Shown one piece after another: positions 13,022 to 20,152 of a stretch of 64,000 nt of DNA (position 1 is its first letter; every line of letters starts with the position of its first letter). The notes below the pieces were generated by a model. It saw only the letters and a list, made by a program, of their open reading frames with translations. It had not been told where the DNA came from and ran no database searches. Position numbers and translations under genes: made by a program. The stretch spans positions 160,001 through 224,000 of the forward strand of contig CM000430.1 of the NCBI GenBank assembly GCA_000165345.1. Direction: 5' to 3'.

Positions 13022-13033
13022 TTGGCGGGAAAC
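13022..13033. promoter_or_regulatory. E2F-like site TTGGCGGGAAAC about 50 bp upstream of the GTF3C5 start
   Basis: Canonical E2F core. Confidence 0.5.
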
Positions 13034-14174: not shown

Positions 14175-15443
14175 CTATTCTAAGGGTTTGACTCCATGAA
14201 CAGAGTGGAATATGATGGAAGACCTCTGAACTGGAATGGAGTTAGACCCATCATTGGCCTGGTCTCTAGTTTCGGAGCTGAGTCTGCAGGACTGGTCGAA
14301 AGTATCACAGCACGAGGAAATTAAATAAGGAAGAGTTGGATGAAATTTCAAGGATGATATACTTTCGTTGCATACTCTGATAAGATTTTTATCAGAGTCA
14401 ACTAACTGGAAGTTTGAGTTCCTCCAAAGTCGTTTCTTTGCACTTGTATCCCAAAGAAAAACACTTGCATCGCTTCCTCCTGTAGCTAAAACATTTGCAA
14501 ATTGAGGATGAAAACACACACTATTGACGGGGTAGATAGTTTCAGTCATCATAGAGTTATCTTTGGTTCTGTGGCACTTAAATGCATAATTATCTTTAGG
14601 ACTTTCTTTACTATTGACCTCTCCTTTTAAAGCCTTTTCTACACTTGTGATTTGCACTCTTCCTTCTATAGAGCTTGTGGCAAACACATCTTTGTGTTTG
14701 TTTGCACAGATATTGCGTAGTTGATATTTCATGAAATTGGGGACAACTTCAGTTGGGGTTGTCGCCTCTATGCCAGATGAGAGTTTTTTCAGATTAATTA
14801 AGTTCATATTTTTTAAAGAATCTCCCACCAAGAGCCATTCTTCATTGTATGAATAATCCATACAAAATACCTTACCAGGAAGGGAGATTTTGGATATTTG
14901 AGAGCCAAAACTGCCTTCATTAACACAGGTTAATAGAACTTCTCCATTCCAATCCCCACTAGCCAGTATTGAACTATTTTCCAATAAAGAAAGACATCTT
15001 ACGGGAGCCAAGTGTCCTACTAACTTTCTCGGACTATAGAGAGAATCTTGCAAATTAATAACATCTACAGCTTCGTTAAACCCTCCAAAAAATATGGTTG
15101 AATCATTCTTAAATTTGCATGCAAGATAAATATACTCGCACTGAAGACTTTGTAAACACTTTCCCGTAGATATATACTTTGTATTTTGTACTGAGGTTGA
15201 AGTATTTTGCAATTCATCAGAGCGTTCTATTGACTCGTTGGAAGGGTTATACTTAAAATTATCATTTAAGCTCGCCCCATAAGGTATCTGAGGGTCGTAA
15301 AATTTCACACTCTTGTTCCAACAAGTCAGTGCCAAAAGGCAACCCTCGTTCTGACCAAGTATTTCTTGCCTATTGTAGCTTTTTATAACATCTATTGAAC
15401 CGATTGGTTCCTCAGGACATTCTGAAAGAAAATAGCTCTGCAT
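14175..15443 (-). CDS. BUB3: WD40 mitotic checkpoint protein BUB3 (BUB3/RAE1 family)
   Basis: YAFKCHR...IYPVNSVCFHP...ATGGSDASVFLWDTSAKKRLW and SSIEGRVQI match the BUB3 C-terminal blades. N-terminal blades are WD-like (LVGHLAPVRCL...ASGDWNGEV). Confidence 0.7.
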   Translation of the reverse strand: MQSYFLSECPEEPIGSIDVIKSYNRQEILGQNEGCLLALTCWNKSVKFYDPQIPYGASLNDNFKYNPSNESIERSDELQNTSTSVQNTKYISTGKCLQSLQCEYIYLACKFKNDSTIFFGGFNEAVDVINLQDSLYSPRKLVGHLAPVRCLSLLENSSILASGDWNGEVLLTCVNEGSFGSQISKISLPGKVFCMDYSYNEEWLLVGDSLKNMNLINLKKLSSGIEATTPTEVVPNFMKYQLRNICANKHKDVFATSSIEGRVQITSVEKALKGEVNSKESPKDNYAFKCHRTKDNSMMTETIYPVNSVCFHPQFANVLATGGSDASVFLWDTSAKKRLWRNSNFQLVDSDKNLIRVCNESISSLKFHPTLPYLISSCCDTFDQSCRLSSETRDQANDGSNSIPVQRSSIIFHSVHGVKPLE

Positions 15444-15528
15444 CGCCAGAGTTTTGTATTGTCTTTACCTTTTGTCCTCTTAATTCCACCTTTTTACTAG
15501 CAATTCTATTGACTAAAGAAAACAAGTG

Positions 15529-15546
15529 TTGGCGCCTTATGGCGGC
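15529..15546. promoter_or_regulatory. GGCGCC plus GGCGGC composite (TTGGCGCCTTATGGCGGC) in the 228-bp bidirectional BUB3/alpha-SNAP promoter
   Basis: Part of a 50-nt GC island (15529-15578) that also carries TGGGTTTGTGGG and a GTGCAC palindrome. Confidence 0.5.
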
Positions 15547-15671
15547 ACACTGGGTTTGTGGGACCCGTGCACTTGTTAGGGTAGTAAGGTAGAGAATAAA
15601 GGAGAAGGTTGAAAAAGAGATAATTGAAGATTTTGTATTGTATTACGAGCTTTAACTGTTGATGATTTGAT

Positions 15672-16682
15672 ATGGAAGAAGCTCAGGAATTATTTAGAAA
15701 GGCGGAGAAGGCAGGGAAAGGCTCCACAGGATTCTTTTCTTCATTATTATCAGGGGGCCCAGACTACGATGAAGCAATACAGTTATATTCTGAAGCAGGA
15801 AATAAGTTCAAGATTTTAAAGGCATGGATGGATGGTTGTGAATGCTTTAGTAGGGCAGCAGAGCTTTCTCTGAAACAGAATGATCTGGTCACTGCTTCTA
15901 ATTATTACACAGAGTGCGGAAATATAATGAAGAGGTCTGATTTGCAAAAGGCTATCCCATACTTTTTGAAAGCAGTAGAACTTTACAACAAGAATGGGAG
16001 GTTTAGCCAGAGTGGAAAGCTCTATAAGAATATCGCAGAGTCGCTTGAAAGTGATTTTCAATATGTAGAGTGTTGTGAATTCTATAAGAAGGCTGCTGAC
16101 ATGTTTGATATGGATGAATACAGCAAGACAGCTTATTCATCTTGCATTCTAAAGTATGCAGATAACTTTTCCCTTTCTATTAATGATGAATATTCTAACC
16201 ATTCGATTTCCAATACTGAGAAAACAGCTCTAGGAAATAACAGCCTTTTAGAGGCTGTTGAGATATATGAGAAAGAGGCAAAAAAAGCTCTAAGTAACTC
16301 CTTGATTAAGTATAATGCAAAGGAGTATTTGTTCAAGGCTTTTTTGATTATTCTTTCTTTGGAAGATAATGTGGACGCTCAAATTAAATGGGAAAAGTAC
16401 TCATCAATCGACCAGAGTTTTTGTACATCTCCTCAAGGAAAGCTTTGTCGCTCTATTCTGGATATAATGGAAAGAAGGCAAAACTCAGTTGGTGAAGAGA
16501 ATGACGATTTAGATAAGAATAGATTTGTTGAGGAGTTTACGAGTCTGATTGAAGAATATAATAACATATATCCAGTAGACGATTGGAAGGTCCATTTCCT
16601 TTCCATTATTAAAAAGAACTTATCAAGAATAGCTATGAATCTCATAGAAAAGGCAGAAAATAATGAATTTGACTTAACTTAG
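15672..16682 (+). CDS. SNAP: Alpha-soluble NSF attachment protein (alpha-SNAP)
   Basis: TPR-like architecture and motifs co-linear with alpha-SNAP: FFSSLLSGG..YDEAIQLYSEAGNKFK, GRFSQSGKLYKNIAE, YSKTAYSSCILKYAD, LIKYNAKEYLFKA. Confidence 0.8.
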   Translation: MEEAQELFRKAEKAGKGSTGFFSSLLSGGPDYDEAIQLYSEAGNKFKILKAWMDGCECFSRAAELSLKQNDLVTASNYYTECGNIMKRSDLQKAIPYFLKAVELYNKNGRFSQSGKLYKNIAESLESDFQYVECCEFYKKAADMFDMDEYSKTAYSSCILKYADNFSLSINDEYSNHSISNTEKTALGNNSLLEAVEIYEKEAKKALSNSLIKYNAKEYLFKAFLIILSLEDNVDAQIKWEKYSSIDQSFCTSPQGKLCRSILDIMERRQNSVGEENDDLDKNRFVEEFTSLIEEYNNIYPVDDWKVHFLSIIKKNLSRIAMNLIEKAENNEFDLT

Positions 16683-16783
16683 CTTAAATTATATTTCCCC
16701 TAAATCTAAATTAAACTTTGATTCTACATTAAGAAAAAGGTATAACTCAGTCTCTAAACTCAGTTTAACGGTACTTTTTGCCA

Positions 16784-18376
16784 CTATAGCGGAGCATAAG
16801 TCATTCTCATACCTAGTTGGAATCCCTCAAGCATATCTGTATTCCGATACTTTATTGGGGCTGAGAACAGTAAACTTAAGTCGGCAGGGCCTAACGGAAC
16901 AGAAAGTCCAATTCCAGTTGTCACCCTAATATTTTGTCTAAATTTTTCCAATACTGATCGCTTTTCCTTATTGTCATTTCTGTCAAGAACTATCGCGCCA
17001 CCTACAAAAGCCTGTACATCCGGCTTTACATCTGTCCCCATTCCACTTAGGTCCAGAGGATGAGAGATCCTCACCTCTGACGCAATAAATGAGTCCCCTC
17101 CCAAGTACACATTTTCTCTATTCTCAACTATTTTGGAATCTTCCTCTTTTCCTTGTGCTCTTGTAATGCGTGTGCATGGTCCGACTGATCTTGGTGCGAA
17201 ACCTGGCAAACAATAGTGAGCCCCACAGTTGCCGCCCAAAAAGAATTTGTCATGCATGGAAGCTTTAAATATAGACTTATTGATGAAATTTGGTAGTAGA
17301 GCGCCAAACCCAAGGCAAAAATCTAGACTTGGATTTTTCAGGAAATTGAAGCCATATCTATTCCTGGAGAACTTGGAGCTCCATGTATAGAAGCCTTGTG
17401 TCTTGATAAAACTTACATCTCCGTTAAATCCTGCGAGCTCAATGCTAAGCTGTTTAATAGTATGGTTGCTATTAATTTTGTAGAAAGCATTAGAACGTTT
17501 CTCAGTTTCAGCTTCAGATGAATCCTCTTCCTTTTCATTATAATGATTGCTTTTAATTTTGTTCCATGAATAACATATACTGTTTTTAAGAGTTTGAATA
17601 CTTTGACCAAAAAATCGATTTGAACTGTCAGTATCGCAATCTTGTAGTCTTTCCCCAATTTGTTCATGCAACAATCTGGGGAATTCTCTGATTCTAGATT
17701 CGACTGTAAGGTTGTGATGATTATTCGGGCCAGAAAACCTAACTAAACCTCCAAAAGAGTTTTCTGTATACGATGAACTTTTATTGTAATCTACTATTGA
17801 CTTTGAAAGATTATATAACATATCAATATTTGTAGAAAATATCTTTGGGGTAAAATGGCTTATACTTAGCTCTCTAGAACTGGTTCCAAAAGTCGCAATA
17901 CTAAATTTGCTCGTACTTAATGTTCCAAATAAGTTTGGGAAAAATGCTGAAGCTTCGAAACCTATTTTTCCTCGTCTGTTAATTGTACTTCCCAATGTGA
18001 ATCTTTTCTTGTTCTCCCTAAGTTTGAATACCACGTCAATATCTAAAGGATTGCCAGTATTTGGAGTCACATTATGTGAAACTGATGAGAAAGCATCTAA
18101 TGAAGAAAGTTCTTCTTGCACATTTTTGGCTTTCATTATAATATTCTCAAAATCACACTCTCCTTGGAATGCATGTTTGTAGCTATTTAGAAGATTGGGG
18201 TCTAATTAAATTCAAAAAAGATGTAAAACACAAAAATTCGAGTTTTAGTTATTATTATAACAAATTCTCACAATTTTTTTAAACTTACTTATACTCCTCA
18301 ATCCCTCAAAAACAACATTAACTCTACGAATTGGCTTCCCATCATTAGAATTAAATTCCATAGAAGCTCCAGGCAT
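16784..18376 (-). CDS. SAM50: Sam50/Omp85-family outer-membrane beta-barrel assembly protein (mitosome/mitochondrial). Two exons (18376..18289 and 18201..16784) with an 87-nt phase-1 intron at 18202..18288
   Basis: C-terminal Bac_surface_Ag features (FFLGGNCG, GDSFIASEVRISHPL, ..AFVGGAIV). Upstream exon MPGASMEFNSNDGKPIRRVNVVFEGLRSI looks like a POTRA start and ends at a GTAAGT donor. An AATTAG acceptor joins in frame to ...NPNLLNSYKHAFQGECDFENIIMKAKNV. An in-frame TGA lies upstream of the exon-1 ATG. Confidence 0.65.
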
Positions 18377-18461
18377 TTGATAAAATACTGTTACCTCTCA
18401 AATTAATTGTTATTGGTGAATTTCTAATTGACAATTCTTATCCCGGCGATGTAATTTAAAG

Positions 18462-18477
18462 TTTGGGCGGGAAAATT
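18462..18477. promoter_or_regulatory. E2F site TTTGGGCGGGAAAATT about 90 bp upstream of Sam50 exon 1
   Basis: Full E2F consensus. Its position relative to the inferred exon-1 ATG supports the spliced model. Confidence 0.55.
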
Positions 18478-19051
18478 GCAGTCAAAAAATACACATGGAA
18501 AAATGGTAATGATAAACTGAGCAAGATATTAAAAAGAGATGGATTTTTTGAGGGAGGTAAGTTAAAGAAAGTAAAATTGATATTTATTGGGCTGGTTAAT
18601 CTGGAATATGATTTAGAAATATTACTCCTCCAGAAAGTTTGAGAACACCACAATACAAACTCATTTAAATGGGTACGTTAAGAATATTACTAGATTTTTT
18701 GACTTAATTTTCAGCTAATATAATAAATATCTAAAAATGGTTAAAGAGTTTCAATAATTTTTTTTTCTTTCCCAAATACTCCTGAAAATAGATCATTTGA
18801 AAGTATTGAATTTACTGAAGAAATATTGGCAAATGTAGATAATATAAATGGGATAATGACAAAGAATATAAAAATATCACCAAATGATCCATTATGCACA
18901 ATAACTTTAAGAAATGGAGTAAAAGAAGTAATAAAAAGCCATATAGGTGGAGAATTGACTGAGATAAATATGAAAATAAAAAATATTAATGGTGAATGTA
19001 AATCTTCTTCTTGGATTGCTATAATAACTAATTCTAAATACTAATAAATGA

Positions 19052-20152
19052 CTATTTCGTAATCTTCATCATATTATTTTGGTATGTAAAGAAGTAATCT
19101 TGATCAGTAGGTCTTGTAGTAGCTTTTTGAAGTTCTCCATAAACGACTTTAGCATCAAATTTGGGATCATTAAGCCTTCCTAACCTGATCATAGCTTCAT
19201 TCTTCTCCTTGAAATCTTTCTTGACAATTGTATTAGGCATATCAAATTCTGTATTCCACATTACTCTACCCTGAAATACTGTGACTCTAAATCCTTCTGA
19301 AACCTTTAATCTTGTTTCATGATCATGACTAAATTCACTAATTACATGCTCCCTAAGGCTTTTAATATCTTTGAATCCGAAAACTCTTGGACCTGTTTCA
19401 TATTTTGAAGATGCATCCAATAATAAATATGTAACATTGGTTTTATCTTCGCTTGCTTGAGAGTAAAATGCAAAGCACCTTCCTCTAGAAATGATTGCAA
19501 GAATGGAATATTTTGGTGAATAATAACTTAGAATTTCATTAAATGCTTCATCAACTGTAACAGAAAGTCCATCCCTATGTAACTTCATGATTTGTAAATC
19601 AGGATTTGACTTATATTCTTTAATTATATCAGAAGTCTCTCTTCTTTCTTTGGCCGCTTCGAATATTTTTTGAATACTTTTTTCTGTAGTAACTAATCCA
19701 TATTCGTTCTTAATACCCCATAATAAGCAGGCAAATTGTCTTTGTGTTTCAGTGATAATTGGTATTCCATATTCATAGGGGACCAAAATATACCACATAA
19801 TGCTTTTACTTTGTTTTGAGAGAGTTTCCACATTTTCCGTTTCGTTTTCATTAATTCCAAATTTATTTGCTATTTCAATACTTGCAATGCTAGTTCTTGT
19901 GGTTGTAGAATATGACGAGATATTGATTTTAATTTTTTTTTCACTTCTAGATCTAGGAGCGCAACATTGCATAAAAGGTCGTAAAAAAAGCTGAATAGGA
20001 GAAAGAGCCTCCTCTTTAACTATTCTTTGTGGTGGCTTTTTGCATCTTGGGTCGTTTACTAATATAAAAGAATCAAATGAAAGTCCTTCAGAAAAAGAAT
20101 ATTCATCTCTAAAAGCGTCATACTGTGGCTTTGATGCTGTTGTAACTGACAT
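19052..20152 (-). CDS. MINDY-family (FAM63/DUF544) deubiquitinase-like protein
   Basis: IMWYILVPYEYGIPIITETQRQFACLLWGIKN resembles the MINDY catalytic-Cys region (VKWIQWKEENTPIITQNENGPCPLLAIMN). No other confident domain. Confidence 0.4.
   Translation of the reverse strand: MSVTTASKPQYDAFRDEYSFSEGLSFDSFILVNDPRCKKPPQRIVKEEALSPIQLFLRPFMQCCAPRSRSEKKIKINISSYSTTTRTSIASIEIANKFGINENETENVETLSKQSKSIMWYILVPYEYGIPIITETQRQFACLLWGIKNEYGLVTTEKSIQKIFEAAKERRETSDIIKEYKSNPDLQIMKLHRDGLSVTVDEAFNEILSYYSPKYSILAIISRGRCFAFYSQASEDKTNVTYLLLDASSKYETGPRVFGFKDIKSLREHVISEFSHDHETRLKVSEGFRVTVFQGRVMWNTEFDMPNTIVKKDFKEKNEAMIRLGRLNDPKFDAKVVYGELQKATTRPTDQDYFFTYQNNMMKITK

Follow-up and report, generated by a model that had tools for sequence, protein, structure and literature searches.

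The stretch of DNA analysed here (the window) comprises 64,000 nucleotides (nt) of GenBank assembly GCA_000165345.1 (contig CM000430.1, positions 160,001 to 224,000 of the forward strand). Between its positions 16784 and 18376, the minus strand carries a protein-coding gene in which a short first exon and a long second exon are separated by an 87-nt intron. We assign a probability of about 0.95 to its being gene 2g770 (cgd2_770) from chromosome 2 of Cryptosporidium parvum, a two-exon gene for the outer membrane protein Sam50 with a single POTRA domain. The features on which this reading is built are the following, in window coordinates:

18400-18398, minus strand: in-frame TGA, 8 codons 5' of Met1, which shuts the frame upstream of the start
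18376..18289, minus strand: coding part of exon 1, 88 nt, encoding residues Met1-Ile29 and contributing the first base to codon 30
18325..18014, minus strand: single POTRA domain, residues ~18-92, split by the intron and delimited by profile alignment and an AlphaFold2 model
18288..18202, minus strand: phase-1 spliceosomal intron, 87 nt, GTAAGT...AATTAG, with three in-frame stops
18201..16784, minus strand: coding part of exon 2, encoding what remains of the POTRA domain together with the Omp85 beta-barrel, with the TAG stop at 16786-16784
18136..18134, minus strand: Met52 (MKAKNV), the start codon of the 450-residue model of 2004, in the middle of POTRA helix alpha2
~17285..17320, minus strand: loop-6 region CLPGFAPRSVGP, residues 360-371, aligned with BamA sLRGFAGGSIGP

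Translation of the minus strand from the initiator ATG (18376-18374, in the A-rich surroundings CAAATG) gives MPGASMEFNSNDGKPIRRVNVVFEGLRSI and one leftover A as the product of exon 1, that is, a variable 17-residue N-terminus followed by strand beta1 (RVNVVFE) of the POTRA domain. Removal of the intron (A/GTAAGT...TTAG/AC, phase 1) yields one open reading frame (ORF) whose product has 501 amino acids (aa). At the junction, the leftover A joins the AC at 18201-18200 to form Asn30, and (A)AC CCC AAT reads on as NPNLLNSYKHAFQGECDFENIIMKAKNV. This reproduces base for base what a first-pass annotation of the window had proposed, namely an 88-nt exon running from the ATG at 18376 to a GTAAGT donor and an 87-nt phase-1 intron with an AATTAG acceptor that joins in frame. 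The TGA that it placed just upstream of the ATG is likewise present and in frame. Its statement that the only in-frame stop downstream of this ATG lies inside the intron was correct as to place but not as to number, as the intron holds three (TAA, TGA, TAA). Because 87 is divisible by three, an unspliced message keeps the frame of exon 2.

The guanine-plus-cytosine (GC) content of the intron is 18%, compared with 36% in exon 1. Both its size and its composition are typical of C. parvum introns, which average 84-99 nt and 22% GC (PMC4637869). The only candidate branch point in it is a YTNAY-like TTTAC ~24-28 nt before the AG, and the orthologous introns carry CTAAC, TTAAC or ACTAA as candidate elements 9-28 nt before the AG.

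The same gene model is already present in public records. The spliced 501-aa product is an exact match to the C. parvum proteins QOY43158.1 (CPATCC_000872), WKS76370.1 and WRK30863.1. Window positions 15284..19876 are 100% identical to the chromosome 2 records CP044421.1 (GCA_015245375.1, IOWA-ATCC) and CP029781.1, in which the annotated Sam50 gene (1593 nt, 501 residues) covers exactly 16784..18376. CPATCC_000872 (gene 2g770/cgd2_770), whose record bears the title 'Bacterial surface antigen (D15)', shows no difference from the window gene in DNA, range or product and is the same object. Since the two-exon model proposed in the first pass thus has the boundaries and the product of the gene annotated in CP044421.1 and CP029781.1, it amounts to a rediscovery of the current reference model. 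The two-exon structure is known and ordinary, and represents a correction rather than a discovery.

What is corrected is the older model. Mechanical listing of ORFs gives a stand-alone ORF at 16784..18136, whose 450-aa product is exactly that of EAK88870.1/XP_626311.1 in the C. parvum Iowa II annotation from 2004; it is the model beginning with MKAKNV from which the first-pass annotation had set out, and it is now superseded. In our view, this 450-aa model is an artefact that arose in 2004 because ORFs were called without regard to introns. With the reannotations, the correct 501-aa model entered GenBank (CUV04432.1 for C. hominis and QOY43158.1 for C. parvum), and the deposited orthologues from C. 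hominis, C. meleagridis and C. tyzzeri have 501 aa. In the supplementary table of one reannotation (Isaza et al, 2015; PMC4637869), cgd2_770 and CHUDEA2_770 are listed with an identity of 0.958, which equals 480/501 for the spliced models; the 450-aa models would yield 0.962. A literature search for 'cgd2_770' returned no match in main texts and found the name only in that table. The gene number is also backed by the neighbouring gene on the opposite strand, whose hand-spliced product is exactly that of 'CPHLJ_2g775'. In terms of quality control, users of the 2004 Iowa II protein set (XP_626311.1) obtain a Sam50 whose POTRA domain is truncated.

The exon-intron structure recurs throughout the genus. 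We compared the window with nine loci, from C. ubiquitum, C. canis, C. felis, C. xiaoi, chipmunk genotype I, C. muris, C. ryanae and the sequencing runs SRR31860986 and SRR31861040. Synteny is kept in all nine fetched loci and comprises a 366-aa gene, Sam50, a SNAP-domain gene and a WD40 gene. In each of the ten species, exon 1 begins with ATG, remains open over 82-88 nt (seven of the species have 88 nt) and ends in phase 1 at a GTAAGT donor, followed at the same codon position by a stop-containing intron of 47-92 nt that ends in (T/C/A)AG. The nucleotide identity of the introns to that of C. parvum varies between 0.46 and 0.83 across the orthologues, while their position and phase are constant. 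Judged from the sequences, the recurrence of this structure in ten species is more than chance. As the intron is also found in the gastric, deep-branching C. muris, it is ancestral to the genus.

An alignment of 11 orthologous proteins separates the two candidate start codons. Met1 is invariant. At position 52, six of the 11 sequences have R, Q, S, H or E instead of methionine, and their next methionine downstream lies more than 100 residues further on; Met52 is kept only in the group formed by C. parvum, C. hominis, C. meleagridis, C. tyzzeri and chipmunk genotype I. Constraint within exon 1 is concentrated on residues 18-26, among which N20, V21, F23, E24 and G25 show little or no variation. 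For the IOWA-ATCC annotation, all introns are stated to be supported by RNA-seq (Baptista et al, PMC8744675). From this statement, together with the conservation, we infer that the intron is actually spliced. For the 501-aa sequence, the recorded sources are NCBI, EukProt and MetaClust only; Logan, which holds assemblies of the Sequence Read Archive, yields the 450-aa ORF only.

The segment encoded across the splice junction resembles a POTRA domain in both sequence and predicted fold. When a profile built from the orthologues was compared with PDB sequences, residues 9-193 aligned with residues 340-523 of Escherichia coli BamA (E ~1e-5), a segment that we take to comprise POTRA5 and the first barrel strands. 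In this alignment, 'nvvfeGlkninplllksykeelqg' is paired with a 24-residue BamA segment, and the same profile also matches the isolated BamA POTRA-domain fragments 3og5 and 3q6b (E = 0.02-0.09). The AlphaFold2 model places secondary structure elements at beta18-24, alpha31-41, alpha47-62, beta67-76 and beta83-92, after which the barrel begins. This beta-alpha-alpha-beta-beta order is that of a POTRA domain, and the predicted local distance difference test (pLDDT) score lies at 65-87 over residues 11-90. An exhaustive hidden Markov model (HMM) search returned 174 relatives, many of which align from query position 9-14. Those that carry names are either Sam50 (Babesia microti, Albugo laibachii) or D15-domain proteins (Vitrella, Colponema, oomycetes). 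A V-x-V-x-F-E-G-L start is common to the Sam50 proteins of Vitrella, Babesia, Colponema and oomycetes, with VTVRFEGLRRV and VKVTFEGHKTT as examples. The proposal made in the first pass that RVNVVFEGL resembles the start of a POTRA domain is thus supported by the BamA profile alignment, the AlphaFold2 fold and the motif shared with other Sam50 proteins. The predicted structure supports a role of exon 1 in supplying strand beta1, with the domain being complete only when exon 1 is included, and the 450-aa model would begin inside helix alpha2 and truncate the domain.

Downstream of the POTRA domain, the protein is a member of the Omp85 family. The Pfam Omp85 family PF01103 matches residues 119-494 (E = 2.3e-14; 54 bits, with the cut-off at 24) and is found in all 11 orthologues. 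The AlphaFold2 model contains a multi-stranded barrel; solved BamA and Sam50 structures have 16 barrel strands. The top Foldseek matches are BamA, the mitochondrial sorting and assembly machinery (SAM) complex and TamA, all at ~1e-13, and the highest query template modelling score (TM-score) among the best matches, 0.46, is common to 6wul_B (SAM complex) and 4k3c (POTRA-truncated BamA). A putative Sam50 has been listed for C. parvum (PMC3044749).

Like the mitochondrial Sam50 proteins (yeast Sam50/Tob55 and human SAMM50; structures 6WUL, 7E4H and 7BTW), the window protein has one N-terminal POTRA domain followed by an Omp85 barrel. Foldseek relates it to 6wul_B with E = 2.3e-13, the profile matches 7e4h_A and 7vku_A over the last barrel strands with E = 4e-4, and Sam50 proteins of other alveolates and of stramenopiles have the same beta1 motif, V-x-V-x-F-E/D-G-L. 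It differs from its mitochondrial counterparts in being very divergent, with 13-18% identity in structural alignments, and in that it would sit in a mitosome, which has no genome. BamA of E. coli (4C4V, 5D0O) is the best match of the sequence profile and aligns over the C-terminal strands in addition to residues 9-193. However, BamA is a bacterial protein with five POTRA domains, whereas the window gene is a spliced eukaryotic gene whose product has one.

The loop-6 motif (V/I/L)RG(F/Y) is modified in part of the genus. Its glycine and phenylalanine are kept, and the arginine is replaced by proline (LPGF) in most intestinal Cryptosporidium species, with LIGF in C. xiaoi and LMGF in C. ryanae. 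The form LRGF is present in C. muris, C. andersoni and C. serpentis, and the Sam50 proteins of Vitrella, Babesia, Colponema and oomycetes carry a basic residue (R or K) at this position. With R or K elsewhere and P, I or M in intestinal Cryptosporidium, one clade thus appears to have lost the loop-6 basic residue that is otherwise conserved.

Several results weigh against the two-exon, POTRA-containing model. At the nucleotide level, the identity of exon 1 is not above that of the intron (0.70 versus 0.76, for instance, when C. parvum is compared with C. ubiquitum), as residues 1-17 vary freely. A substitution-rate argument for coding was accordingly dropped, and the case for exon 1 being coding therefore rests on the ORF, the constant phase and length, Met1 and residues 18-26. 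A 30-mer spanning the spliced junction was not found in metagenome contigs of the Joint Genome Institute (JGI), a null result that is uninformative. The confidence of the AlphaFold2 model, for which the 96%-identical C. hominis protein was used, is moderate (mean pLDDT 64, from an alignment of 8 sequences); the alignment is shallow because a second homologue search returned just the same 8 Cryptosporidium proteins. Finally, the first-pass annotation had suggested an HMM search of the spliced protein for both the POTRA domain and the barrel. The barrel was found, as described above, but the Pfam POTRA HMM (PF07244) did not match the C. parvum protein at E <= 10, and among the 11 orthologues it matched a single one (E = 0.031) without reaching significance. 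The missing match reflects the limited sensitivity of this HMM towards divergent eukaryotic POTRA domains, not absence of the domain. We discount it as evidence against a POTRA domain because the profile alignment to PDB sequences and the predicted fold both show one.

The same observations bear on whether the 450-aa protein starting at Met52 could be the real or main product, with the upstream ORF and the GTAAGT/AG pair arising by chance or belonging to the 5' untranslated region. The 450-aa ORF is self-standing and was the original annotation, and the level of nucleotide identity in exon 1 would fit this explanation. However, more than half of the aligned orthologues lack Met52 and offer no nearby substitute, and all ten species have an open exon 1 that ends in the same phase at a GTAAGT donor. 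A start at Met52 would moreover remove beta1, alpha1 and half of alpha2 from the domain that can be aligned to both BamA POTRA5 and other Sam50 proteins, and current annotations carry the 501-aa model. Because Met52 is not conserved and the domain would be truncated, a sole Met52 product is excluded in practice, and we consider it extremely improbable. A combination of both forms is conceivable in the group that retains Met52, which includes C. parvum and C. hominis; here, intron retention or internal initiation would add a POTRA-less Sam50 to the spliced 501-aa protein. Met52 stands in an A-rich context in this clade, retention of the intron would end the upstream frame at its three stops and allow reinitiation at Met52, and yeast Sam50 without its POTRA domain is viable. 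Nothing supports such a transcript, however, and as Met52 is specific to one clade it is more likely to be an ordinary internal methionine. We therefore find a second, POTRA-less form quite improbable. We are equally doubtful of a further extension of this idea, in which that isoform and the loss of the loop-6 arginine would together point to a mechanistically reduced mitosomal SAM machine.

The family assignment raises a separate question, as the protein could be an Omp85 member of another kind (BamA-, TamA- or Toc75-like). The sequence profile indeed scores BamA (E = 3e-7 to 1e-5) better than yeast Sam50 (E = 4e-4). Yet the gene is a nuclear, intron-bearing gene of a eukaryote, and its product has a single POTRA domain, as does Sam50. 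To our knowledge, C. parvum has a mitosome and no plastid. Furthermore, the closest named relatives outside the genus (Babesia microti, Albugo laibachii) are annotated as Sam50, the SAM complex chain 6wul_B shares the highest query TM-score of 0.46 with 4k3c, and a Sam50 of C. parvum has been listed as putative (PMC3044749). On this evidence, we give an Omp85 protein other than Sam50 next to no probability.

For the two-exon Sam50 gene, we propose the following explanation. Exon 1 would supply Met1, the variable 17-residue tail and POTRA strand beta1; the spliceosome would remove the 87-nt phase-1 GT-AG intron; and exon 2 would supply the remainder of the POTRA domain and the barrel. Sam50 proteins are Omp85-family insertases that fold beta-barrel proteins into the outer membrane, with the POTRA domain on the intermembrane-space side, as is established for yeast and human. 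By analogy with known Sam50 and BamA proteins, the window protein would reside in the mitosome's outer membrane, with its POTRA domain facing the intermembrane space, and would insert beta-barrel precursors such as Tom40 via a lateral gate. Both the mitosomal location and the insertase function of this putative Sam50 are thereby deduced from orthology.

Two further features lie upstream of the gene, on the plus strand:

18462..18477, plus strand: E2F-like site TTTGGGCGGGAAAATT, 86-101 nt 5' of the Sam50 ATG
18539..19044, plus strand: gene 2g775, encoding a hypothetical protein of 108 aa, three exons, arranged head-to-head with Sam50

The first-pass annotation had described a full E2F site about 90 bp 5' of the Sam50 gene. 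The site is real, largely conserved and located at about this distance, but it does not fully agree with the known motif. In C. parvum, upstream motif 4 is TTTGGCGGGAAV (Oberstaller et al, 2013; PMC3734150). The site fits this motif in its GGCGGG core, in its T- and A-rich flanks and in its position upstream of a gene; the core GGCGGGAAA is exact, enriched in the window and conserved in orthologous promoters, and the difference consists of one additional G between the T-run and the core. A strict palindromic E2F pattern, TTTSSCGSSAAA, gave 0 matches, and the asymmetric form of motif 4 fits instead. The core GGCGGGAAA occurs five times in the window, compared with 0.11 occurrences expected from shuffled sequences; the four other exact copies, at 13024, 43252, 53272 and 55281, fit the genome-wide E2F-like motif of C. 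parvum. At the aligned position, TTCCCGCC or TTGGCGCC is found in seven of the ten species, and C. ryanae, as an eighth, carries the variant CTGGCGCC.

The site sits in a 162-bp head-to-head gap between the ATG of Sam50 (18376) and that of 2g775 (18539), and its core GGCGGGAAA is within ~100 nt of two start codons. It may serve Sam50, 2g775 or both, its binding by E2F/DP and its use as a promoter element being predictions from motif and position. E2F-like motifs are over-represented upstream of gene clusters that total ~2,379 C. parvum genes (PMC3734150), and open-chromatin peaks are dominated by E2F-like motifs, with many of the peaks being bidirectional (bioRxiv 10.1101/2025.01.17.633476). 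As this is the commonest upstream motif of the genome and the promoter is shared with 2g775, such a site is to be expected here and has little gene-specific meaning. In general, the locus adds no new biology, given that a single-POTRA Sam50, short AT-rich introns with GTAAGT donors and E2F-like motifs are all established for the organism or the family.

The first exon of 2g775 is 18 nt long (MDFLRE), and its introns begin with GTAAGT or GTACGT. The hand-spliced product is an exact match to KAL5369869.1/WKS76371.1, and the annotated range of the gene, 833-1338 in locus L010, corresponds to window positions 18539..19044. Across the same range, CP044421.1 gives a 123-aa product, so the two annotations disagree on splicing. 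A Pfam search with the 108-aa protein returned no family.

The comparison across species also brought to light probable errors in several deposited Sam50 records. The chipmunk genotype I protein ELE39_003696 (451 aa) starts with MKAKNV, and the DNA upstream of it (L005:1262-1435, SCFC02000045.1) contains the conserved exon 1 (MPGTSGEFNSDDGKSVGRVNVVFEGLKNT), the GTAAGT donor and an intron of 86 nt. The record thus repeats the error of the C. parvum model from 2004. The C. felis record 'SAM50 isoform X1' (493 aa; L003:1501-1656, JABXOJ010000013.1) is based on an intron of 62 nt that starts at a GTTTTT donor 4 nt downstream. With the conserved GTAAGT and a 47-nt intron, the protein has 498 aa and regains SLFLKSY, which aligns with LLNSY/LLKSY elsewhere; the deposited record may therefore use the wrong splice sites. 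The deposited proteins of C. xiaoi (L004, 448 aa) and C. ryanae (L009, 439 aa) end in unrelated tails (…GIGKLTRLKECNLE and …GIGELE, respectively). A model with a single intron extends them to 476-477 aa, and in C. xiaoi it restores the conserved C-terminus …LSLLFSMPLRHQETDAFERMQFGMRINYAPI, so that the 3' intron of both annotations is likely spurious. Lastly, SRR31860986 (L006) and SRR31861040 (L007) contain a syntenic Sam50 gene whose protein is 57-58% identical to that of C. parvum and whose exon 1 has a higher GC content (43-50%). These two loci match none of the Cryptosporidium species compared, and their gene calls, of 462 and 458 aa, lack exon 1.

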